A DNA stretch of 56,821 nt, the filler included, from Bipalium vagum (lineage: Eukaryota), in NCBI GenBank assembly GCA_037834085.1. It is 3 parts of 3 records of this genome, joined end to end, with 100 filler letters (N's around TTAATTAATTAA, not from the genome) between each part and the next. Parts side by side here need not be neighbours in the genome. Positions count along the whole stretch, not along the records: positions 16,580 to 36,954 come from JBBMKC010254474.1; 2 more parts are not named here. One strand, 5' to 3'. The stretch's first letter is position 1; the number at the start of each line of letters is the position of its first letter. Shown here piece after piece: positions 2,347 to 35,760 of the stretch. The notes under the pieces were generated by a model. That model did not search any database and was not told where the DNA came from. It saw nothing but the letters and a program-made list of their open reading frames with translations. The position numbers were made by a program, and so were the translations under genes.

Positions 2347-2816
2347 TTTATTGGTAATAACAATAGAAATATGCTTGCTGGATAGTAGATCGTAACAATA
2401 ATTCACCTCCGTTGTTCTGACATTTAAAGAATATATTAATGGAAATATTGAAAAATTTATATTTTAGAGAACGTTAGATTTTTTATTTTCATTTGATTTG
2501 ATTTTTATCTTTATCTTATCATAACCATAATTTTATATAATTTCGGTTAATTATTAATATGATAATATTAATAAAATTATAAAAAATGTGTTGGGTTTGC
2601 CAAAGGCTCAAAACCCGATTTTGATTAATAATAATAATAATTTTAGTTTAAAAATTTAATAGCAACAAAGCGTTACTAAGTTAATAAATAAAATAATGAA
2701 CTTTTATACACCTTACTATTGTTAAGTTCCTAAAAGGATGGTTGATTTTATAAAACTTAGCTTGGACTTTTAGGTTACTTAACAAAGTCTATGCTATCAG
2801 AAGGGATTACGGATGA

Positions 2817-4052
2817 TTTTTTAGATCAATGATTTCCTTCGTGGGAATTTCAGTGGAAATATACGTTCCAGGATAATGAACCTTTATATTTGTAACCTTT
2901 TTTGGTCCACAACCACAATCTATCAAGTATTCGTCGTCATCCCTCATTTTACCAAAGATCTCTATTAATGAAATTACGAGCAATGCATGAGACTGGTTAA
3001 TCTTTGGTTTAATTTTTGTACTTTATTTTTTAATGGCAATAAGTTTTAATGACTTGTGCCATCAGGCATATAAGCTTTTATCTTAACGGATGTGGGATTT
3101 TCTTTACTTTGACGAATTGATTGACCATATTTCAATAACACTTCTTCTAACTCTTTTCTGTGGTGTGCCGAAAAAGTTACCAAATTACAGAGTTTATTCA
3201 CTATCTTTTCCAATATCTTAACTGGTATTGGCATTTTGACAACTGAATTTAATAAAAGTTTTATTTTAACGTGATCCAGATTATTTTTAACTAACTCTTG
3301 CGTGAGTTTGTTGGGGATATTTTGCATATGCTTATAATCTTGTTCAGGGAACACATCAGTTCTTCATTTATAACCTCTTCGGGTTTGAAATAAATGTCAA
3401 TTATCTTATTCCAACCTGGTATTATACCATAATCCTAGATGCTATTATTGGGATCTAATTCTGTACGATAATATTTCAATTTGAAATTTCTATTGATCAA
3501 TTCCTTAACATTACTGATTATCTCTTGTACCATTGTAGCTGTAGTAGTACCATTACATTATCAGGATATCTGTAATATAGGGTAAATTGCTCATTTGTCT
3601 TTGGGTATAACCTGCCTATATTTTGCAATAATTTGATTTCTATATCTTTGTCCATTTGATTTTGTAACAATAAATGTCTTGCTTCTTGTATATTATCTAT
3701 AGGTACTTCTCCACTAACCCATTTTTCTGCGATTTGTCTCGCTGCTCTATACTGCTGTGCTCTGTCAGAAATTAATATGATTTGGTCATCTAAAGGAACT
3801 TCCTCAGAATTACTTTGATCCATTTTGGAATATTCATTTTTTAAAATTGTTTCTAACCTTTCTATATAGGCTAATCGATTTTGACAATTAATATCTGTCT
3901 CATCTTGGACAGTATTAATTTTACCTGATAACTTAGGACAACTTCTTTGAGTATGCCCAAATTTTCCACATATATGACATTTGATCTTTCCCTCAACGTT
4001 TATTTGCTGTCGTTGGGGAGAATTATAATTGATCCTTGTCTTCTGATGCCGT
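2817..4052 (-). pseudogene. Degenerate gag(-pol) polyprotein remnant: CCHC nucleocapsid knuckle, ubiquitin-like segment, unknown region
   Basis: Frame reads RHQKTRINYNSPQRQQINVEGKIKCHICGKFGHTQRSCPKLSG... into ORF 3518-3823. After a frameshift it continues ...FKLKYYRTELDPNNSI*DYGIIPGWNKIIDIYFKPEE... into ORF 3046-3354. Contains stops and a frameshift. Confidence 0.7.
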
Positions 4053-4096
4053 GTTTTTAATATTTATTATTTTATCTGAAAAGTGCTCCGAACGTG

Positions 4097-4114
4097 ATCA
4101 CGTCTGGCTCACCA
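4097..4114 (-). promoter_or_regulatory. Primer binding site complementary to the tRNA-Trp 3' end
   Basis: Minus strand TGGTGAGCCAGACGTGAT, 2 nt after the LTR terminal CA. Matches the canonical Trp PBS TGGTGACCCCGACGTGAT at 16/18 positions. Confidence 0.8.
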
Positions 4115-5649
4115 AATGTTAAGTTCCTAATAGGATGGTTGATTTTATAAAACTTAACTTGGGCTTTTAGGTTACTTAACAAAGTCTATGCTATCAGAAG
4201 GGATTACGGATGAACGTTGGAACACTAGAGTTATAACTGTCACAATAAAAATCGATCAAAAATAAAACTATGAGGACACAAATTTATAGCAAAATCTTTA
4301 TTGAAAATATAATACAAAGTTTTGACTACACGGATTAATTAGGTTTGATGCTAATCTAGCAGAATCTTTAAAAACAGGCTTAGCCTAGTGTGTTAGAGCC
4401 CTCAGGAAGTTTACCAGCTAGCGGCTGTGTAAACTTTAAACAAAAAAGGAAGAAAAAGATAAACAGAAAAGTTACTGTATCAACGGTGAAGCACCGAGTA
4501 TTTACTTTCACGTCAATCGGTTAAGATTGCACAAATTGTAGGTTGATTTATTTAATTAAATGTGACTGCTTACTTCTGTACTCACAGAGTAAGAATCAAT
4601 TAAAAATATGATAGTAAAGTAGAAATAATAATAATAATGAAAATATTGTTATGAATTTTTACCTAGGTTTCTTTTGATGCCGAACTTTGTTATAGATTCT
4701 TCCGTGCCCTTTAATCTTTAAAAATTATGCTCTCTTTAATCAAGAGATCTGTTAATAAGCATAATGTAAATTTCCAATATTTTTTATAAAATGATACGGT
4801 TCAAGGAAAACATAATTTAGTGGAACAATATTTATTGTTTGGAAAAATAATTATAACACATTTTTACCAGTTTCTACTAATTAATATTTTTTTTATCCTC
4901 TTGAAAATTTAATGAATATATCTGTGCTACTTTAAAAATAAATAAAATTTATGTGACACTCACTTTTATTTATAATATCATAATTAATTCTTTGATAAAT
5001 AAATGAATTTCTAACCAGTAAAATTTAATTAAACAGTGATTACTTAATTTCCTCCGTCTAGACGTCTTTCAAAAAATAAGTATTTTTTAAATAAAAAATT
5101 TCTTTTCATTTTAATAATAATTAATTTTCACTCAGATCACATTTATTCATTTTAATGCATATTTTAAAATTCAGAATTTTAGGTGATGACTTAGGAAGAA
5201 TGTCTCTGGATATCTGTGATAATTACAATTTATAAACCAGAAAGATTCACAAATATTAAAAAATTATATTGTTAATATTTTTTGGTGAAATATAATGATT
5301 TATATTAATTTTCTCTTAGACAGAAGATACATTTTTCCTAATAAGATTTTTATTTTCCAAATTTTTTTATTGTTTACCAGATCCTTCAATAATTAATAAT
5401 CCTCATTGAAGCAATGATTGTAATAGATATTTGTCTCCCGGTATTGTTCAATTCTGTGATAAAAATTATATTTTAATATTTTTTTAATTATATAAATAGT
5501 GGATAAATAAATCTAATACCTACCAAAAGTTTTAAAAATCCACAATTTCTAAAATATTCTGTTTGTCCATCTATTAAGCCGATCCTTACAAATTTAATCA
5601 ATTAAAACTCACCAAAAAGTACTTAATATTAAAAATTATATATATAATA

Positions 5650-12551: not shown

Positions 12552-13508
12552 ATGTCCAAGGAATTTCTAAAGTTTTGTAATGAGATATATACAATTTCCA
12601 ATAAATTAAATTGCTTGGTAGGATCGCATATTAACATTAATATCAATTTTGACAACAAACTTAAAGAGATTAGTTCTCTGATTGCTGATAATAAAGATGA
12701 AGTTAATTTGAAAGTGCTCATTCAACAATTATCAGAATTACATAGTTTACTGGATACGAAATTGAAACACACAGAAGAAGTCAACTTAATGTGTTATAAA
12801 CAAAGCAAGTATCTCTCTGAATTGAACAGCGATACATTGGAAACCACAAATATTTCTCAAAATTTGTCTGATACGTACTCCGAAATTGACAATTCCAATT
12901 GTGATATGTCACAATCTAAAGTAAAGTCTAATGATTTTGTTTTCGGAGGACCTAAAATGTCAATGATCATGAATCGCAATGATAATTTTATCACACCGAA
13001 AAAGTTACCACCAGTTAGTAGATATCTAGATGATTCAGTCCACAATTCTCCGTTTAAAACTGAATGCGGCAGTGGCCCGTTGCTCCGTAAAAAGTTGAAT
13101 TTTAACATCAAACCCAATAAGCACAAAACGAAAAAGTTTGTTCCTTTTAAGAAGCAGGGCATTTTTAAAATGAAAAACGAGGAGTGTGCCAATATGTCTA
13201 AGAGGTCCAGCAACATGCGCCTCGCTGCTTCAAGTGACTCAAAGTATTCAAGTTATAACAAAAAACGAAAGCGGTTGTCACTGTCGCAGAATGGCTTAAT
13301 TTATTCGAAGAACACTCGTAATCAACTGAACAAGTCATGGGATCACGAGGATACCAGGGTCTATTGCATCTGTAACAAACCGTCATACGGGGATATGATC
13401 GCCTGTGACAGCGAAAAATGCAAAATCGAATGGTTCCACTACAAATGCGTGGATATCACTACAAGTCCCAAGGGTGACTGGTTCTGTCCGATGTGTAAAA
13501 TTGATTAG
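12552..13508 (+). CDS. Inhibitor of growth (ING) family protein with C-terminal PHD finger
   Basis: C-terminal YCICNKPSYGDMIACDSEKCKIEWFHYKCVDITTSPKGDWFCPMC matches the ING PHD signature. Helical/coiled N-terminus and basic NLS (KKRKR). Paralog (ING1-5) not assignable by eye. Confidence 0.92.
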   Translation: MSKEFLKFCNEIYTISNKLNCLVGSHINININFDNKLKEISSLIADNKDEVNLKVLIQQLSELHSLLDTKLKHTEEVNLMCYKQSKYLSELNSDTLETTNISQNLSDTYSEIDNSNCDMSQSKVKSNDFVFGGPKMSMIMNRNDNFITPKKLPPVSRYLDDSVHNSPFKTECGSGPLLRKKLNFNIKPNKHKTKKFVPFKKQGIFKMKNEECANMSKRSSNMRLAASSDSKYSSYNKKRKRLSLSQNGLIYSKNTRNQLNKSWDHEDTRVYCICNKPSYGDMIACDSEKCKIEWFHYKCVDITTSPKGDWFCPMCKID

Positions 13509-14807: not shown

Positions 14808-15663
14808 TGTTAAGTTCCTAATCTTAAAAGAGTGGAGATAAAAATTATTATTATTATTATGACTTAACGGCGAAGGTTGCTCAACAATGATCGAATAAAT
14901 TCAAATTCAAATTTTCAAAAATTATATTTTTATCAAAAATATGGATTTTAAAGGCTCGTGATGATCGTCCTTGATGGATAATTTATTTTAAGGCTTTTTA
15001 TTTTGGGTTTAGAAAAATCCTCTTGCTCTTAGGCTCAGAGTTCTTCAATGAAGAAAAACAATTTAAATCACAGTCCAACTTAGCGTGAGTTAAGAACAAA
15101 AATGAAAACGGAAAAAGGAAGAGAAATTAAAAGATTATTTGATCCTTAGTATTATTTAAAGATAACTTTTGCTTTGTCTACAAAGAAAGATTATCTGCAA
15201 GAGTTTATTTATTTAAAACTTTGTTTTATTAATAAAACAAGTAATATTGTTAAAGAGCAATTTAATAAAATTGAGTTAAATGTTGAGTTAAACTTTATCT
15301 TGATTACAAGGTAAGTTCCTTTATTTATTTAATAAAAAATTTATTTACCTATTGGCATAAATGTTTGAGTGATATGATCTCAGAAATGGTAAATTTTGTC
15401 TTACTTTGAATAAACTTGAATTGAACAACTTTTGATTTTGACTTTCAATAAATAGGGATTGAATTCCAAATAAATCTTTGTGGTATTTTTGCTAAATAGG
15501 TATTTCTCAATATTCCCTTTTATATTACTGATCGTAGCCTTTCTTTGAAATATTTGAAATATATATAATTTCGTCTGATCGACACTATCGTATTTGATAA
15601 GATTTATTAATGGATAAAATTTTTTTTTTGTGTTTCCTCTTGACTTCATCCTGGTTCTTGACA
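14808..15663 (-). mobile_element. Solo-LTR-like copy related to the TGTTAAG LTR family (right end tentative)
   Basis: Starts TGTTAAGTTCCTAA like 2720/4117. 14860-15090 is homologous in reverse complement to 32990-33230. Candidate other end CTTGACA at 15663, but the flanks (AATA/CTAT) are not a TSD. Confidence 0.6.
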
Positions 15664-15696
15664 CTATAGGGTTTGATCATTTTGATAATATTTATA

Positions 15697-16137
15697 CGTG
15701 GTTCGTTCAATAATGCCTCGGTCTGACTAAGAAAAAACATGATAAACCAGTCAAGCCAATTGGCTTGAACACCTACACGTATGTTTGTTTATATGCATAA
15801 ATTAAATAATCTGATTGGCTGACGTATAATTCATAAACTAACTCACATTTCATTTTTTGTCAAATGGATGAGGTGGAATACAGAAGTATCATTTTGAGAC
15901 ATCAGATGCATTCCAGCAATTTGTTGAACAGTAGTTTGCAGAGCTTCCTGGACATTTTTATGCTGATGCATTTAAAGATTTGGTGATTAGATGGAATAAG
16001 CTAGTTGCTGCCAATATAGAAAAATAATGATATATGTTTTTCGAACTAGTACTTCATGTAGTTCAATAAAAGATGTTTCAGTTTTTTGTGTTGTGTTTTT
16101 TTCTTAGTTAGTCTGAGGCATTATTGAACAAACCACG
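15697..16137 (+). mobile_element. Non-autonomous internally deleted mariner (MITE-like, 441 bp)
   Basis: About 43-bp TIRs CGTGGTTCGTTCAATAATGCCTCGGTCTGACTAAGAAAAAA and near-perfect reverse complement, TA on both flanks. Interior retains MDEVEYRSII start and FYADAFKDLVIRWNK C-terminal remnant. Confidence 0.9.
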
Positions 16138-16322
16138 TATTTGTCACCCTTTCACCAATGTCGAGAGACTTTTATAATATTTTTATTAATATTAAAGTTA
16201 TTAATAATTATTATTTACTAATTATATTTTTATGTTAACTCTTATTTTTAGTAATTTATTTTAGCATATTTTCTTTTTTTTGAAACTGGGACTTTCCCAT
16301 ATATATTTTATTTAAACTTATT

Positions 16323-16479
16323 TGTTGGGTTTACCAAGACACCCCCCGGGAAAAAATAAATAATAAAAATGATAAATAATGCATAAATACTAATAATAAT
16401 AATATTATTATTAATAATATTAATAATTAAAAATTAATTAATACTTGAAAATCATTGAGAATTTCCCAGGAATTTTATT
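16323..16479 (+). repeat. 5' end of a TGTTGGG-type LTR/repeat running into an assembly gap
   Basis: TGTTGGGTTTACCAAGACACCCCCCGGG followed by an AAT-rich tract, the same architecture as the solo LTR starts at 33859 and 21917. Confidence 0.55.
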
Positions 16480-16579
16480 NNNNNNNNNNNNNNNNNNNNN
16501 NNNNNNNNNNNNNNNNNNNNNNNTTAATTAATTAANNNNNNNNNNNNNNNNNNNNNNNNNNNNNNNNNNNNNNNNNNNN
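16480..16579. other. Artificial scaffold join (N44-TTAATTAATTAA-N44)
   Basis: Exactly 100 nt; the central 12-mer has stop codons in all six frames; identical construct at 36955-37054. Confidence 0.95.
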
Positions 16580-16800
16580 ATATTATAAACATTCATTTAA
16601 ATTCCAAGAAATGCTTTATATTATCTAAAAAAAATTTTAAAAAATCATTTATATTTCCAATTTCAGATCAATTTTAAATTGATAAGTCTTTTAGTGGCCA
16701 CTCTGTATTATTATTATTATTATTATTAATATTTATACCTTATTTATAGTTTTTTTTATTATATATTTTTCCCCCGGGTGGTGTCTTGGTAAACCCAACA
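16580..16800 (-). repeat. Second, inverted 5' end of the same TGTTGGG-type repeat running into the gap
   Basis: Reverse complement reads TGTTGGGTTTACCAAGACACCACCCGGGGG, then an AAT-rich tract. Confidence 0.55.
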
Positions 16801-18764
16801 AAGTTATTACTGTCTTGGCTCTTGAACTCTCCGCCGTGGGCCTGTGACTTGGATTACTGCTGATTTGTACTGAGCCTTCACTTGAATGGTGTGGGTTGGA
16901 TATTATATCTTCGTATTTTTGTTCAACTGGAACTTGGTTTTTAGCTTTTAGCTTGGAGGTTGTGGTTTTGTTATTGACCTGATATCCGTAGGTTTTTGAT
17001 ATTCTGAAGTTTTCAAACTTGTTAATAATTTTTGGGTGTTGCAGATTGCTGTCGTAACGTCTGAATTTAATTCTCTCCTTTTTCTTCTTTTCTGACTGCT
17101 TATGGTTTTCATTCCTTTTTATATTATAATTTCTATCTTATTTTGTAAAAATAACACCTTCCTATTTCTTATTATAATTTTCTTGTCTATTCCCACTACT
17201 AATTTTATTATTCTTTCAATTCTTATTATAAAAACTTTCCTTATTATTTATTTTTAGTAATATTTTGTTGTTTTATTATAAATTTCCTTTATTTTCAAAT
17301 TTTTTGACTAATATTTCATATGTTTTTAATTAATTCATCATTTCATTCAATTTTGTATGCATAATAATAATTTACATACTACTCAGTACTGATAACTTAC
17401 ATATTATTCATGAATTATTAAAAATGATCATTTTCATACTATTATAATTTATTATTTATATATTATTTATTAATTATCATTTTATTATTTATGTTTCAAT
17501 CAAGGACGATTTACATATCGAATACATATACTTTTAAAACTTATTATAATACACATAAAATTCAGATCAAAATATTATTGTTATTTGATCGTATATACAA
17601 CACAATTGGATCATAAACACAATTAAAATTCAGATTCAGAAGGATTACAGTATTATATTTGGATCAATATTTCAGTTAGTTTGTGGTTGTTGGACAATTG
17701 GGATTGCTATTTTTTCTGTTGATCTTGATCTTGGAGTCTCCACAATAATAAATAAAAGTAATAATCAATAATCAATAAAAAATATTTTAAAAATAAGGTT
17801 ATAATAATTTTATTCGATATTAGTAGTGATAAGTGACCAAACATAATTAAAATAAAACCTAAGGAATAAAAATCCAAATGTTTCAATTTTTTCAAATGTA
17901 CAATTTTTAGAAATTTTTAAAACAATAACAAATAAAAAACCATTAATAAATCATTTAAAATCCAAAAATCTTTTTAAAATATAAAATGAAATAATAGTTG
18001 TAAAATTTTAATTGTGAACTTTGTAACAGGAATTAAAACTCAAACAGATTTATCACATTTAAGATCTAGGAAACATTATGAAAAAAAATTTAATATATTT
18101 AATAAATTACCAATTAATTCTGCAAAATATTCTAATAAAAGCAAAACACTTGAAGAAAATTTATTAAGTTTTAAAAATAAATATAATCAGAAAATTAATC
18201 TTTTTAAGTCTAAAATTTTAGTAATTAAAAAATTTTACAAGATAAATTTTTTCTATTACCCAGATGAAATAGAAAAAAAAATTTTTTTTTGAAATAAATA
18301 AAAAATTTAAAAATCAAATAATATTGTTTTTAAATATAAAAGAAATTATAAATGTGATAATTTTACATTTTTTCACAACCAACGGAAATTATAAAGAAAA
18401 ATTAAATCAAACAAAGTATAAGTTTAATATTTTTAAAGTAAAATAAATATATAGCAGAAAAAGAATTTACAGGATTTGGATAGAATTTTAAATATATAAC
18501 TATTCAAAACTAGAAAAAATTTTAGGATGTTAAGTTTTGTTTTTATACTTTATAGTATGAAAAGAATATGAATCCAAATCCTGGATTCTGTATCTTGCAG
18601 GAAAATGTGAATTTTGGTGTATGTATGTGTGTGCTTCTGGCTGTGTGAATATTAAAATTATTTTTTATTGGTTTATCGATTTATACTTAATTAATTTTTT
18701 TAAAATAATTCTCATGAATTAATTAATTTTTTTCTTAATTTTTGTTTTTAATGTTAATTTCTTA

Positions 18765-20899: not shown

Positions 20900-22360
20900 A
20901 TGAAGATATATATAGAAAAATATTCAGAAATATATATAGAAAAAATATTCGACTGTTTCTAATTGAATTGATCGGAATTTAGTCAGCCAAAAATATAAGC
21001 TGGATAGTTGCTATTAAAATGACAGGTTTCATTGTTTTGTCATCTGTTTATTTGTTACTATTATACTAAAATGTAGCAACGTGTGCTCGTCTGCTCGTGA
21101 CACTTTGTGTAACTCATTGTGTTCGAAATCCCTCTCAACTCATTTGAATGTAAAACACCCTCCACTATACAGTATCCGCTCCCTTTAATAACCAATTCCA
21201 GATATTTAAAATAAAACTTTATTTATACTAACAATTACAAATATTAAATCGATCACAAAAGAAATGTTATTATGGATGAACTGAAATCCCACTACTACTG
21301 AATCTAAATTTAATAATGATAATAATTTAATACTAAAATTGAAGGAAAAAAAACGAAAAATAAAAATAATCAAAACCGATCTCACCAAGAGCGACAAGGG
21401 GTCCTCGGGTCACCCTCTAGACCCTTCTCAGGTCGCCTAGGGGTTCCCAAGCTTGCTGGGTCCCCTTGTAAAAAGAATCCGACTGCATAATTTGGAAATG
21501 AATAAAAGATTTACTGTGGTCGTCCTCTTAATTCCTCCAACAGCGTCTTCTGGAATTTTTGAATGTTTCCTCTGAAATTTTTCCGACAGAACTCTGAAAA
21601 TTTGGGCGACTTAACGGGAATAGCTGTCTCCTTTTATAGGCGTCGGGATTGGTCTACGATCACCAATCCCTACTCGGAGACAACTATAGCTTCTCACTAT
21701 CTCCACGCCGAGATAGTCTCCTGATCCCATGAAAAATAATCCCTACAACGGGATTTCCCGATCACCAATCAACAAGAATGATCCCATGAAAAAATAATCC
21801 CCACGGCGGGATTTCCCTTTACTAATTAATCAGAAAAAAATTCCCCCTTTTTTTGAAAAAAAATTTTTTTTTGTATTATTATTATTATTCAAAATTATTA
21901 TTTTTCAAATCCCAACATATTTATTAAATAAAATTTACAAGCATTTTATGTTTCCAAATCAGAGATGAAAATAGTTTTATGGACTTCATTAGTGAAGAAC
22001 TATACAATCATTTCGATCAAAATTCTGGGGATGTATTGGTGATGGACAATTGCAGGTTTCATCACCGCAAAGATTTTATTAAGTTGCTGACAGAACGGGG
22101 TATTGCTTACAGATTTCTGCCACCATTCTTTATGAAAACCATTATAGATCGGGACGATTTATAATAATTGATTGCCAAAGTACTCCTTCATGACGATATC
22201 GATTTATTTGATTATTTACGCAACATGAGGCCTTGGCGAGACAAAAATTTACTTTAGTATTTAGTGTACATTTTCACTATATATTTCTGAATATTTTTCT
22301 TTATATATTAATAATTCTCTTTATATTTTGAATATTTTTATATATTTCTGAATAACCCTG
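20900..22360 (+). mobile_element. Deleted Tc1/IS630-like (DDE_3) element interrupted by a solo LTR
   Basis: NISWIVAIKMTGFI left of the LTR and VLVMDNCRFHH...YRFLPP right of it. Inverted subterminal repeats AAAAATATTCAGAAATATATA at ~20915 and ~22280. Right TIR ...TCTGAATAACCCTG-TA. Left boundary approximate. Confidence 0.7.
21053..21917 (-). mobile_element. Solo LTR (865 bp), TGTTGGG...ATAGTAACA family, 4-bp TSD TATT
   Basis: TG...CA ends, TATT at 21049-21052 and 21918-21921, TATA box CCTATAAAAGGAGACAGCTATTCCC, AATAAA. Homologous to 33859-34807. Confidence 0.9.
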
Positions 22361-27684: not shown

Positions 27685-30600
27685 CATTTTATTGTTTATT
27701 TTCTAAACCACTTATGGTTTTCATGTCTGTTTTATAGCCCATCAAAACTAACCATGTTCATTTTCCAATCCTAAAAATATTTTAAAAAAAAAACATTAGA
27801 AAGACAATTAAATAAACAATTTATTAATCAAATTTATTTAATAACTTAAATATGGCATTTGGATCTTTCTTTAGAAAATTTTATCTCTAAGTCATTCGGC
27901 CAGTTAAAACTTTAGTACCATTCCATATATTCTCAAACATTTTTTCTTGCTTTTTAATGTTTCCCAGATAGATTCAATGCGCTAGGTATTGGCACCAGTC
28001 TCTTTGTTCACAAAATTATGTTTGTGATTGAATGTGTGACGAGTAAAATTTTATCCTTAGCCAATTGACAATAGGCATTCCCCTCATCAATCATTATACG
28101 TGATCCTTTTTTAACCATGGTTCTTATAATGGGTATCAAAGTGGCAGCACTTCTAATGTTGACTAAGATCAAAAATATTTTCACGCATGAGTTTATATAA
28201 CATTTTTGTTAACCCCTTGATGACAACTTTTTTATAACCCATTGCATTATGTTTTTTTCCTAACCCATTGAAGACAAGGTTTTACTTTAACCCACTGTCT
28301 TTGATCAAGTATTTTATCTAACCCAAGTGGGTTGAAAACTAAACATGGTCAACATAAATATTTTTTTTAAAAAAATTTAAATAATATATTAAAATTTTAT
28401 CCTTAATGTAAAATAAATGTTTTAAATAATTTTTAATAAATTTAAAGTTTTTTAAAAAAATAAATAATTAAATTAATGTTAATAAAAATTTTAGATAATT
28501 AATTTTTAAAATAAATAATTATTCGACCATTCAATTATTTTCAACTGTTACTAACAATTATTATTATTATTATTACTATCATTAATGATTTTTTCTCCCA
28601 ATTTGCTTTTTAAAAATAATAATTGTGATAAATTAATTTTTTTTTATTATTATTATTATTATTTTATCGTTTAATTATTTGAGATTAAGGAGACTTTTTA
28701 GCTTAAAAAATAGTTAATAATTATTCAAAAAATGACAAATGTTAAGATTTCACATGAATTCACAAATGTTCTTTATCTGGTTTTTCTCCTTTGAATATGA
28801 TTTGAAATTGTACTTAAATAAAAATCAATTGGTGAAGAAAAAATAATTAATAATGTGATCGATTTTCTTCGGACTTTTCATTTCTATTTTGTCATTGAAT
28901 TATCTCTTTTCCTTAAAAAAAGATTTGAAAAAGTTATTGAAAAATTCTCTTTAAATTACCAAGAAGATTCGATAAGGGTAGCGTCATTATTTTCCAATAT
29001 TTTATAATATGACTGAAGACTTATTTTTTATATATTTATATATGTATATTTTCCAAAGATTCTTTTGATTTTCATGAGATTTAACTTTCTTATTCATTAT
29101 AACACTAATCAGATTCAAAATATCTCAATACATATTAATAGTACATTAACGGGTGGCCAATAAAGAATGATAAACTCTTTAAATACATTATTTTTAAACT
29201 AAAAAAATTTAAATTTGAATTATTAATTGATTTAATTTATGCCAAGGTTTTTAATATCTTGCAAAATAAACATGTTATTTTTAGCAATATTTTCTTTTAG
29301 ATAATGACGTATAAGAGCTGTGTAAGAAATTTGATTAAATAGGAAAACACCGGAAGACATTTATGAAGCTGTAGCAAAAACGGTAAAAAAGTCCATTATT
29401 TATAGATGGACTAAACTAATAAAAGATGGAAAATCATTACTTGTCTCAAAATTTCCCTGAACGTCCAAGAACCGTAAGAACGAAAACATTTATCAAAAAA
29501 ATTAACAGAAACCTTACAACAAACAAAAAAAGAAATCAGCTAGAAAGTTTGCTTTAGATTTTAAATGTTCAAGAGGAACTATTGAAAATATTATATTTAA
29601 TGACTTGGGATTTAAGTACTACAGGAAAATAAAAGTTCCCTATCTATCTGAGTCCCAAATCAAGAGACGAAAGACGTGCTCATGTTAGTTAAGAAAAAGA
29701 TTTAGTAAACAGGCAGTGAACAAAATTATGTTTAGTGATGAAAAATCTTTTGGTGCAGATGGTCAGTTTAATCCACACAACGACGTCGTTTATGCTTTGT
29801 CTAGAAAAGATAAAAAATTAAAAGGTGGAGTTTTTGCAAAGAGAAAATATCCTTTGAAAGTGATGGTATGGGTTAGACTGACATATCAGGGTCCGATGAA
29901 ACCTGTATTCTTACCGACAAAAACATCTTTTGATACAAGATTTTATATATCAAATGTACTTCCAATCTTTGGAAGCTCATTGGAAGCGATTTCATATATC
30001 AGCAGAATGGTGCTAGCTGACACAGAAGCAAAAAGACGACTGCGGTATTAAAAAAAGATTGATATTTCAATAATAGCTCCAAATCAACCAAATTGTTCAC
30101 CAATTTCACCAAATCTTAGTCTTCTTAATTATTTCTTTTGGAATGAAGTATCAGAAACTGAAAACAAAAAAAATTGAAAATCGTACAAAACCGATTGAAA
30201 AAATTAAAGAAACAATTGCAGAAATTCCATTAAATATGATTCGCCAAGCCATCGATTCCTTTCGACAAAGAGTTTTGGCCATAGGGAGGCACAAAGGAGG
30301 TTTAATAATAAACTGTTTTTATTAAATAAATTTTGATTTTATTCTTTATTAAATTCTTTTAATTGAGTTAATTTAACATTATGCTGTCTATGTCAAACGT
30401 CATTCAAAGAATTGTCTTTTTTTTTGGCCACCCGTTACATAAATTAGTTAAAATTATTTCTTATGAAATCGGAAAATTTTATTTACTTTATCGATCTTAT
30501 TTCACAAAGCGTGACCTGGTCATTGTTTACAAATTGTGATTTTCACTTACCTAAACAGTGTTAAAGTTTAATAAATAATTATACTTTTAACTATTACACT

Positions 30601-32924: not shown

Positions 32925-33277
32925 TCAGACCAGGATCTGAGGATTATATAATTTTTAAATCTCTATTTCTGACACTATTTTTTATTTCACACGCTAAGTA
33001 GGGCGGTGAAATAATTTTTTTTCTTTTCTGAGGACCTCTGAGATTAAGAGCTAGAGGATTTTTCATAATAATAATAATCTAATAATACAATCAGGGACAA
33101 TATCACTGCATTGTAAATTAACACTTAATTTACTTAAAAATAAAAGTTTTAAAAAACGACTCGTTATCTCAGTAATTTCAATTAATAAAAACGAACACTC
33201 AATTAAGCAACCTTCACCGTTAAGGCCTAAATCACAATAACCTCTACTTACTTACATCCCCTTTTAGGATCTTAACA
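32925..33277 (+). mobile_element. LTR fragment (U5 end) of the TGTTAAG/CTTAACA family
   Basis: Ends CTTTTAGGATCTTAACA; shares CACGCTAAGT...CTCTGAG..TAAGAGC.AGAGGATTTTTC and GCAACCTTC.CCGTTAAG blocks with the reverse complement of 14808-15090. Confidence 0.7.
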
Positions 33278-33766: not shown

Positions 33767-35760
33767 TTGTCTTGAACAGAAAATTTGTTCGTTTTTTTAA
33801 CTGTAGAATTAAACTCAATTAAATTCAATAATTTTTTTAACGAAATTTTGTTCAAAGTTGTTGGGTTCTAGAGTTAATAATAATAATAATTTTTTTAAAA
33901 AAATTTTCCAAAAACTATATATCAAAATCCCACCGTGGAGATTTTGATATGATACGCTAATGAATTTTCTGACAGTCGAGTGAACTGCAGGTTTCAATCG
34001 GACTCTATCTCGGCCTGGAGATAGAGTTTAATTAATGACTATTAGAGGAAATAGCCGCCTCTAAGCGTATGGATTGGTGATGTTAGACTAATCTCTACGA
34101 GTATATAAAGAGACGGCTATTCCCAGAAAGGCTCCAGAAAATTATTAAAGTGAATTTTAGTATTGTTTATATTCGTTGGAAGTGGAAAACATATTCAAGA
34201 CTTTTACGATTGAAAGGATTCATTGCCAAGAAGACGTTATATTTCTACGAAGAAGATTTTTATCACGAAGGCGGTTATTCGACAGATTCATGTATCAGTA
34301 ATGATTTTTAGTTCAACAAATATGCAACAGGATTATACAAGGAAACCCAACGAATTTGGGAATCCCTAGGAGACCTTAAAAGGGCCTAGTGGACAACCCG
34401 GGGACTCCTTGTCGCTCCTGGTAAGAATATCTTTAATTTTTTTATGATTAACAAGAACTTTATTTTACTCATCTTGAATTGGTGATTTTGGATTATCTGT
34501 GTTTTTTTTCTTTGATTTTCAATAACTAAACGTTTTGATTTTGAGATAATTTAGATTATTGATTTCAGCCTTTGACGATTTTTATTGCGATTTTATGACG
34601 AGTGTAGCGATTATTTTTGCGCTATTCAATAAAGTTTTATCGGAATTGTTTTGATTCAATTAGGGTGCGGATAAATTATTATTGTGGGAGTTTTGATTCT
34701 AATCGAGTTTAACTTTTTGCAGCGACAATAGAATTACGAACGCGACACATTAAAGTGAGGAGTTTTTGATATGATATACGAGTGACTTTCAAAGTATAAT
34801 AGTAACAAAGTGTATGATATTTTTAAATGTGTAGGTAATTGCAATATTTAGGTAGCAAGCCTTAAAATGTCTCATAATGACCAACATATTCGCCATGTCA
34901 TTCTCTTTTATTTTCATAAAGAGAAAAACGCTACCCAGACACAAAAGAAGAGATGCTTAGTATATGGCGAAAATATAATAATCACTTGCACTTGTCAAAA
35001 GTGGATCTCAAAATTAAAGAGGGAGATTTTTCTCTAATAGATTCAGGTCGCTCAAAGTGGCCATTGACTGTCAATGATGACGATTTAATCGCCTTAATTG
35101 TAAAAAGACAATGCAGAACAACACGAGACATATCAAAAATGTTACATATAAGTCAGACGTCTATAGTTAATCACTTAGGAAAACTGGGCTACATCTCCCG
35201 TTATGACACTTTGGTACCTCATAAATTGTCAGAAAAGAATATTAATGATCGCTTTTCTGTTTGCAAATTATTATTGAAACGGAACGAGGAAAGTTCCTTT
35301 TTAAAGCAGATAATTAAAGAAAACCAAAACTGGATCATATATAAAAATATTAAACGGAAGAGATCGTAGATAAAGCCAAACGATTCTCCTATACAGCAAC
35401 CTAAAGGAGATTTGCATCCAAAACAAATTCTACTTTTAGTTTGGTAGGATTTGAGCTTCTCCCAAACAATGAAACCATCAACACTGATAATTATTGTCGG
35501 CAGCTAGACGAAATAAAAGATGCAGTCCAGAATTAGCTAATCAAAAAGGAGTGATATTTCACCATGATAACATCAGATCTTACATACCAAAGAGTATGCT
35601 GCGAAATTTTTCAGAGTTGAATGTGCAGTGTTAAGTCACCCGGCTATTCCCCTGATATCGCTTTTTCAGATTACCACCTCTTCCGTTCCTTGCAAAATAG
35701 TTTCGATGGAAAAGAATATCAATCTTAAGAAGTTAGCAAAATTCACCTGAACAATAGTTT
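33767..35760 (+). mobile_element. Degenerate mariner whose 5' UTR is interrupted by the solo LTR
   Basis: TIR-like TA-TTGTCTTGAACAGAAAATTTGTTCGTTTTT at 33767. Transposase from ~34867 MSHNDQHIRH with LVPHKLS, WIIYKN, IFHHDN and YSPDIAFSDYHLFRSLQN. Confidence 0.85.
33859..34807 (+). mobile_element. Solo LTR (949 bp), TGTTGGG...ATAGTAACA family, 4-bp TSD AAGT
   Basis: TG...CA ends, AAGT at 33855-33858 and 34808-34811, TATA box GTATATAAAGAGACGGCTATTCCC at ~34102, AATAAA at ~34628. Homologous to 21053-21917. Confidence 0.9.

Follow-up and report, generated by a model that had tools for sequence, protein, structure and literature searches.

The locus studied here holds two solo LTRs that can hardly be aligned over much of their length and yet share a GC-rich segment of 76 nt, which raises the question of what role this segment plays in the retrotransposon. 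Every LTR element has two identical poly(A) signals, and it must keep the one in the 5' LTR silent while using that of the 3' LTR. In the literature covered, this control has been worked out in a few retroviruses and hardly for animal LTR retrotransposons. A unit of hairpin, splice donor, intron and AATAAA signal, as predicted below, with natural variants in a large family, would provide a compact and directly testable case, and an intron retained inside an LTR is a puzzle in itself. The window analysed is a stretch of 56,821 nt from Bipalium vagum (assembly GCA_037834085.1), made of three joined parts of the genome, and is AT-rich with a GC content of ~27%.

The two solo LTRs and their family

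Copy A (33859-34807, + strand, 949 bp) and copy B (21053-21917, - strand, 865 bp) have TGTT...AACA ends, with a TGTTGGG start and a GTAACA end common to both, and each is flanked by its own 4-bp direct repeat; the chance of both duplications is ~6e-5 as calculated from base composition. Neither a TGG primer site nor a purine tract was seen in the inspected flanks of the two copies. Given the LTR ends and the 4-bp duplications, with no primer site or purine tract adjoining, we regard both as solo LTRs, and as such they are dispersed members of a multi-copy family of an integrase-type LTR retrotransposon. The ends fit the integrase signals of Ty3/Gypsy-type LTRs, a clade assigned by the pol domain order and RT phylogeny of a full-length element, and no internal region joined to these two LTRs was seen; these signals are given in the available text of PMC3601003, and the 5' end of both copies fits its TGTTRNR. 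The Metaviridae LTR consensus of that survey also shares with copies A and B the AACA end, TATA and AATAAA, while the ta-TRIM/lennie elements of tapeworms, as presented in the accessible parts of PMC4558846, have the same 4-bp target duplications, and their solo LTRs are transcribed and spliced. No conserved hairpin-donor-intron unit of the kind predicted for copies A and B is described in those portions of the two papers, and the word 'splice' is absent from the main text of PMC3601003. Many solo copies that carry a promoter and a donor could splice into host genes, as the tapeworm solo LTRs do (PMC4558846, in part). A reading as a TRIM with two short LTRs was ruled out, the only internal repeat in copy A being one of 31 nt at 81% (E 0.045).

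Identity between the copies alternates along the LTR. From 0.47 in the 5' U3 it rises to 0.74 over the promoter block and drops to 0.38 across the leader, then reaches 0.78 for the 76-mer and 0.85 for the linker with the donor. Past the donor it falls to 0.37, and it is 13/13 at the AATAAA block, 0.46 in U5 and 0.88 at the LTR end. The 76-mer, located at 34337-34412 (+) in copy A and 21394-21469 (-) in copy B, is one of several conserved islands in the LTR and not the sole one. The first-pass annotation of this DNA had described it as ungapped in both LTRs, set in poorly alignable surroundings and placed between the TATA box and AATAAA. These descriptions were all borne out: the two 76-mers differ at 17 of 76 positions (78% identity), identity falls to the values above on either side, and both solo LTRs have a TATA-like box, 169-235 nt upstream with a spacing that varies between the copies.

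Family data were drawn from contigs of sequencing run X1, which is probably the source data of the window and hence does not constitute independent support. In this run, 2,363 contigs fell on 1,081 bases of the copy A region and 1,271 contigs on 126 bases around the copy B element. The summed depth at the element was ~86,000 as compared to 15-26 for the single contigs listed, which is not a copy number but points to a very large LTR family. Conservation within the family has sharp edges, at ~21373 and ~21473, beyond which lie unrelated loose ends. On the donor side it stops a few bases past the predicted donor of copy B, depth dropping from 43,729 at 21385-89 to 31,261 at 21380-84, 10,185 at 21375-79 and 1,062 at 21365-69. 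No indel is listed from the stem through the linker to donor position +5, and the three listed indels all lie at 21470-21475, outside the 76-mer. A second run, X2, which carries another organism label, yielded one contig across the element (depth 3.7).

Further homologues and known identities were sought by several routes. A covariance model built on the two copies recovered only copies A and B in the window, other matches having E 0.38 or worse. A 29-letter pattern gave no match in metagenomes; 18 viral, 86 metagenome and 5 prokaryote pattern matches were rejected as chance, since the alignment never exceeded 38 bases at any of these 109 loci and the outer-stem partner was present in none of the 85 matches checked. 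The collections scanned yielded no copy from outside this organism group. A scan against Rfam (release 15), the check that had been proposed for novelty, gave no match in the window at the gathering threshold, i.e. no known family, and at E up to 10 only 2 and 5 weak matches, all far below threshold. A tRNA within the LTR, of the Helenus type, was likewise not found in the window by ARAGORN (0 genes) or Rfam. In the open literature covered, including the available text of PMC4558846, PMC10886601, PMC11410931 and PMC4209133, we found no description of this RNA or of an intron within an integrase-type LTR; Repbase and Dfam entries, supplements and subscription papers may describe the family. A literature search with sequence words returned only unrelated 11-letter matches. 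Structured cis-elements in LTRs are a known kind, and the RNA of the 76-mer is absent from Rfam.

Predicted fold and paired changes

Both isolated 76-mers are predicted to fold as an unbranched rod (z -2.6 and -3.8) made of an outer stem (element positions 1-7 with 70-76), a lower stem (21-24 with 61-64), an inner stem (27-34 with 49-57) and a cap (38-40 with 45-47). The outer stem drawn by eye in the first-pass annotation, and its inner CUAGG/YCUAG stem with the capping helix, are present in the minimum-energy folds of both copies. Its hairpin 1 (10-14 with 20-24) failed to appear: the pair probability is ~0 in both isolated 76-mers, forcing the hairpin costs 4.9 and 4.8 kcal/mol relative to the rod, and both copies prefer 21-24 paired with 61-64. 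In longer contexts, hairpin 1 reached a probability of 0.8 in one of four for copy B and 0 in four of four for copy A. The multi-stem topology that had been proposed is therefore not the preferred fold, and in these models the branched form is a possible second state beside the rod. A possible pseudoknot between the loop at 13-17 and positions 76-80 has four of five pairs in each copy by reading; the variant rows described below cover positions 13-72 only.

Between the two copies, the rod has two double changes (7-70 and 27-57) and three one-sided changes among its 24 pairs, while the first-pass model has one double change among 20; such counts are not significant by themselves (p 0.15-0.20; 133 of 500 shuffles for the rod and 245 of 500 for the first-pass model). 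Three compensatory changes had been cited at first. One of them, at 7-70 in the outer stem, is indeed two-sided and the other two are not; the change cited in the inner stem depends on a copy B letter at position 49 which is private, being carried by at most 3% of the run X1 depth. The double change at 27-57 had been overlooked. The fold as a whole fares better: when the fold of one copy is imposed on the other, 24 of 27 and 24 of 25 pairs are retained, more than in random mutants (p 0.005 and 0.008), although retention of antisense pairs is also above chance (p 0.038 and 0.016). An argument made earlier, that the G.U pairs work on the sense strand only, proved weak: the antisense consensus fold has -30.9 kcal/mol against -28.45 for the sense fold, and the antisense folds of the two 76-mers have z -3.1 and -1.6.

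A further test draws on variants within the family. The variant table comprises variants of at least 1% in run X1 at element positions 13-72, with copy B as reference; it is without linkage, weighted by contig depth, biased to B-like copies and drawn from copies of shared ancestry. Most C/G sites show a transition background of 1-2% (median 1.4%), as expected from decay after insertion. At positions 16 and 49, copy B has private letters, from which 95% and 97% of the depth differ; both positions were excluded from the count, which also removed pair 34-49. The copy B fold used was predicted before the variants were seen. In this fold, both partners of 4 of the 18 assessable pairs (26-58, 27-57, 35-48 and 40-45) vary above background in such a way that Watson-Crick pairing is restored, with frequencies on the two sides of 6.5 and 4.1% at 27-57, 9.4 and 6.6% at 35-48, and 1.7 and 1.9% at 40-45. 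The change at 40-45 is a double transversion with matching depths of 1,297 and 1,316, in 9 and 10 contigs. Shuffling among same-base sites gave a mean of 0.7-1.15 such pairs, with p 0.0105, 0.0021, 0.0013 and 0.0013 at four thresholds that were picked after the table had been seen. A control with slid partners restored 0-1 of 17 pairs, and the first-pass model scored 1 of 9 pairs (p 0.33-0.43). A narrower test confined to C/G transitions found 2 of 12 pairs (p 0.03-0.04), and the rank correlation in that test was non-significant (p 0.22).

Some variants run counter to the fold. Above-background variants that break a pair and have no listed partner occur at 21 (2.9%), 30 (2.0%) and 34 (5.0%), pair 22-63 is disrupted in the single low-depth copy of run X2, and a double change may in each case go back to one ancestral event. 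All four double changes fall in the inner hairpin. The support for the lower stem (19-24 with 61-66) accordingly comes from energy and one-sided changes, and the branched form may exist as a second state; hairpin 1 itself has double changes at neither of its two assessable pairs, and variants at 13 and 21 break it. The original claim of a selected structured RNA within the LTR is nevertheless supported by the family-wide variants together with the sharp edges of conservation. The 76-mer is a real, selected structure, a family-conserved stem-loop with paired changes in the solo LTRs of a high-copy retrotransposon.

Predicted splice donor and intron, and a proposed role in the choice of poly(A) site

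Exactly 8 nt beyond the stem, both copies have a GT that begins a candidate splice donor. The linker and donor occupy 34413-34425 (+) in copy A, with G/GTAAG and a predicted intron start at 34421 (the slash marks the exon border), and 21381-21393 (-) in copy B, with G/GTGAG and a start at 21385. Matches to the donor consensus number 7 of 9 and 5 of 9. The predicted introns run from 34421 to 34568 (+; 148 nt, 51% T) and from 21385 to 21281 (-; 105 nt, 52% T), and both end in GATTTCAG, an 8-mer that occurs twice in the whole window, once in each LTR; the stretch between donor and acceptor is variable in length and sequence, and about half T. The AATAAA block follows 60 nt past the acceptor in copy A (34628-34640, +) and 58 nt past it in copy B (from 21223 downward, -). 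Donor, acceptor and AATAAA motifs thus stand in the same order in both copies, with spacings kept except for the donor-acceptor length. In the family data of run X1, donor position +3 alternates between A and G, by which the consensus is kept, a C/T variant preserves the YAG of the acceptor (in a place covered by only 4 contigs), and depth is high at 34614-34724, around the AATAAA block. No intron-less copy was seen among the 15 of 67 contig joints listed, which is too weak to count. The alternative that TGGTRAG is an internal primer-binding site was set aside, there being no CA before it and conservation ending after 7 letters. The arrangement reads as an intron inside the presumed R region, in which the 76-mer is placed by the positions of TATA and AATAAA.

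A second conserved hairpin lies in the predicted U3, at 34050-34123 (+) in copy A and in the matching block at 21617-21687 (-) in copy B. This promoter block, with inverted CCAAT-like boxes and the TATA-like box, forms a long stem with z -3.4 and -6.7 (antisense -3.7 and -4.5); of its 23 consensus pairs, 3 show a double change, in one case where the alignment is loose, and 3 further changes are of the G-U/G-C or C-G/U-G type. The region has the highest family depth on the copy A region in run X1. As it encloses the TATA-like box, only the 3' LTR would carry it as RNA, barring a transcription start further upstream, and it may equally be a DNA feature. The U3 also contains small inverted repeats of the form ATCYC-six bases-GRGAT with similar loops, at 33920-33950 and 33998-34030 (+) in copy A and at 21790-21820, 21732-21762 and 21692-21722 (-) in copy B, which are either RNA hairpins or palindromic DNA sites.

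The donor, the acceptor and this second hairpin had gone unnoticed in the first pass and are the best clue to function. Our preferred reading, to which we assign a probability of about 45%, is that the 76-mer is a cis-acting RNA of the R region which, together with the donor 8 bases on, sets the balance between splicing with LTR polyadenylation and unspliced read-through. Transcription would start ~30 nt past the TATA box, in which case hairpin, intron and AATAAA would all lie within a long R and be present at both ends of the genomic RNA. The donor and acceptor motifs would be used for splicing, and the rod would serve as a protein-binding site, for the Gag of the element or for a host factor, beside the U1 site. 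If U1 held the donor and no splicing to the local acceptor took place, the poly(A) site of the 5' LTR would be suppressed, which would give full-length RNA with an intact 5' R; this unspliced 5' R would template both new LTRs, and the intron would be kept. Use of the local acceptor, in contrast, would create a terminal exon and let the poly(A) site fire, in the 3' LTR or in short LTR-only transcripts.

It is the fixed link between stem and donor, with a local acceptor before AATAAA, that suggests a logic like that of foamy virus or of the Arabidopsis element EVD. According to the available text of Schrom et al. 2013 (PMC3694450), prototype foamy virus has, as predicted here, a donor in a long R beside RNA stems and upstream of the poly(A) signal, U1 and RNA structure choose the poly(A) site, and the donor is found at both RNA ends, as we presume for our element from predicted R bounds. 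The foamy donor belongs to cap-proximal stems that refold with 13 nt of U3, whereas the candidate donor here lies outside the stem, ~290 nt from the presumed start, has a candidate acceptor in the same LTR and sits in what is apparently an invertebrate retrotransposon. EVD, of the Ty1/Copia type (Oberlin et al. 2017, PMC5580714, as far as available), is an LTR retrotransposon that keeps its intron and makes a U1-dependent choice between splicing with early termination and full-length RNA; donor-bound U1 represses early termination, and splicing accompanies early poly(A), as proposed here. The EVD intron lies in gag-pol and not in the LTR, its short RNA encodes Gag, and the terms 'hairpin' and 'secondary structure' are absent from the main text of that paper.

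Foamy-type refolding that hides the donor when U3 is added was not supported by the predictions, in which donor accessibility does not fall: for R alone versus U3 plus R it was 0.18-0.30 versus 0.18-0.31 in copy A, and 0.35/0.34 versus 0.72/0.52 for the GT of copy B. In the absence of a consistent change, a protein-mediated effect is likelier than refolding. Against the splicing and poly(A) reading it can be said that the donor is outside the stem, and that conservation of the exon end next to the hairpin could have some unrelated cause.

Alternative roles and neighbouring features

The main rival reading, unlikely though to be taken seriously, is that the 76-mer is a packaging or dimerization signal independent of the donor, a role which is not exclusive of the splicing and poly(A) reading. 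Such a signal may switch, the rod hiding the palindrome at 61-66 and the branched form with hairpin 1 freeing it for a second RNA. Dimerization by short palindromes of the 5' leader is described for Ty1 (PAL1/PAL2 in SL1; PMC6844567) and Ty3 (PAL6; PMC11381356), whose palindromes, in the parts of these papers available, lie in the 5' genomic RNA and are paired within a hairpin of the monomer, as predicted here. The inner stem consists of two CUAG palindromes paired together, the branched form lies similarly far above the rod in both copies, hairpin 1 reaches 0.8 in one long context of copy B, and copy A co-folded with itself takes the branched form plus a 6-bp intermolecular helix at 61-66, with -63.3 kcal/mol against -56.6 for two monomers. 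Extended self-duplexes, however, are energetically favourable for any hairpin, which makes the co-fold energy unspecific, and the self-dimer of copy B lacks the 61-66 helix. The 6-mer is perfect in copy A and in ~67% of the depth but broken in copy B; position 65 within it is the most variable site (67% versus 33%) while its partner 62 varies by <1%. No sequence likeness to the Ty1 and Ty3 palindromes was seen, and the present element differs from them, within the accessible text, in that a third of the depth has a broken 6-mer and in its link to a candidate donor. Being upstream of that donor, the element would be present in spliced and unspliced RNA alike, and the variants that break hairpin 1 speak against the switch as well. 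Should the hairpin be an ordinary packaging signal, it would still be an RNA family missing from Rfam, of modest interest.

Improbable in our estimate is an R structure that serves another step, i.e. first-strand transfer in the manner of TAR, elongation, nuclear export of the intron-holding RNA, or translation. Unspliced genomic RNA with a strong donor would need an export route, and RNA elements of this sort generally take the shape of a rod interrupted by internal loops. TAR is cap-proximal, unlike the 76-mer, which lies well past TATA at a variable spacing. The survey of LTRs (PMC3601003, in part) connects the residual conservation seen in long R regions with stem-loops; the retroviral cis-elements in Rfam gave no match at E up to 10, and the fixed 8-nt link to the donor is left unexplained. 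A further proposal, slightly more of a long shot, would combine several roles: a two-state switch between the rod and a branched form freeing the dimer palindrome, placed 8 nt before an LTR intron, may couple dimerization or Gag binding, donor use and poly(A) choice, with the U3 hairpin marking the 3' copy. If true, such a cassette would explain why reverse transcription has not removed the intron from either LTR in so large a family.

Less probable still is that conservation acts on DNA, be it on palindromic sites for factors or on a hairpin formed by single-stranded DNA while reverse transcription proceeds, or that the segment is a chance GC-rich island, the RNA fold being incidental. The antisense consensus fold is as stable as the sense fold, antisense pairs are retained above chance (p 0.016-0.038), the rod folds with DNA parameters too (-12.3 and -16.6 kcal/mol), and several other inverted repeats of U3 are possibly DNA sites. 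Swaps of pair identity at 40-45, 27-57, 35-48 and 7-70 argue for pairing rather than a site read by its sequence. Both copies retain U21-G64, either of the two letters found at 65 can pair with U20 on the sense strand only, and, as a weak indication, the C side varies more than the G side in 9 of 13 G-C pairs, as tolerance of G-U on the sense strand predicts. A chance island is unlikely given the sharp edges of conservation.

An undescribed self-cleaving ribozyme, as in Penelope-like repeats or retrozymes, is very unlikely. In Penelope-like elements (Cervera and de la Pena 2014, PMC4209133, in the text available), the terminal repeats hold hammerheads and introns, so that a structured RNA abuts a retained spliceosomal intron much as in the layout predicted here; the present element differs in having no hammerhead core and in its TGTT/AACA ends and 4-bp duplications, which point to integrase-type LTRs. 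Several unpaired positions vary by <1%, but low variation at A/U sites is the background here, and the preferred fold has no multi-way junction or supported pseudoknot. The hammerhead boxes CUGANGA and GAAA never occur together in one copy and strand near the element, and twister, pistol and HDV motifs were not found in a pattern screen of both copies. Among the Rfam ribozyme families, none matched at the gathering score or at E up to 10. The screen and Rfam thus agree with the earlier statement that there is no hammerhead core, and lend no support to the catalytic role that had been suggested. A short coding exon spliced to a downstream ORF is hardly credible: in copy B one reading frame runs through the element as far as the donor without a stop, and no indels are listed inside the element, but that frame has a stop in copy A, the 9.4% family variant at 35 creates another, and third positions take only 7 of the 17 differences.

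Several other features were noted in the window. A different LTR element at 2720-4700 (-) has a 97-nt repeat pair (2720-2816 and 4117-4213) and an LTR end, after which comes a TGG primer site resembling tRNA-Trp. A gag-like frame at 3521-4063 is broken and includes a zinc knuckle; the element has no similarity to copies A and B. Terminal inverted repeats of ~95 nt (85%), starting TGTTGGG, surround an assembly gap at 16321-16802 and are probably those of a MITE, and a similar TGTTGGG-type start is seen at 2589. Inverted repeat pairs that are unexplained join 15012-15087 with 32990-33064 (80%) and 15694-15737 with 16097-16140 (91%). Fragments resembling mariner (34920-35369, +) and Tc1 (29689-30051, +) transposases were recognized by eye, with no Pfam match, and copy A stands just before the former. 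Animal genes are represented by an uninterrupted PHD-finger (ING-like) frame at 12552-13508 (+) and by a T-box first exon at 39486-39887 (-).
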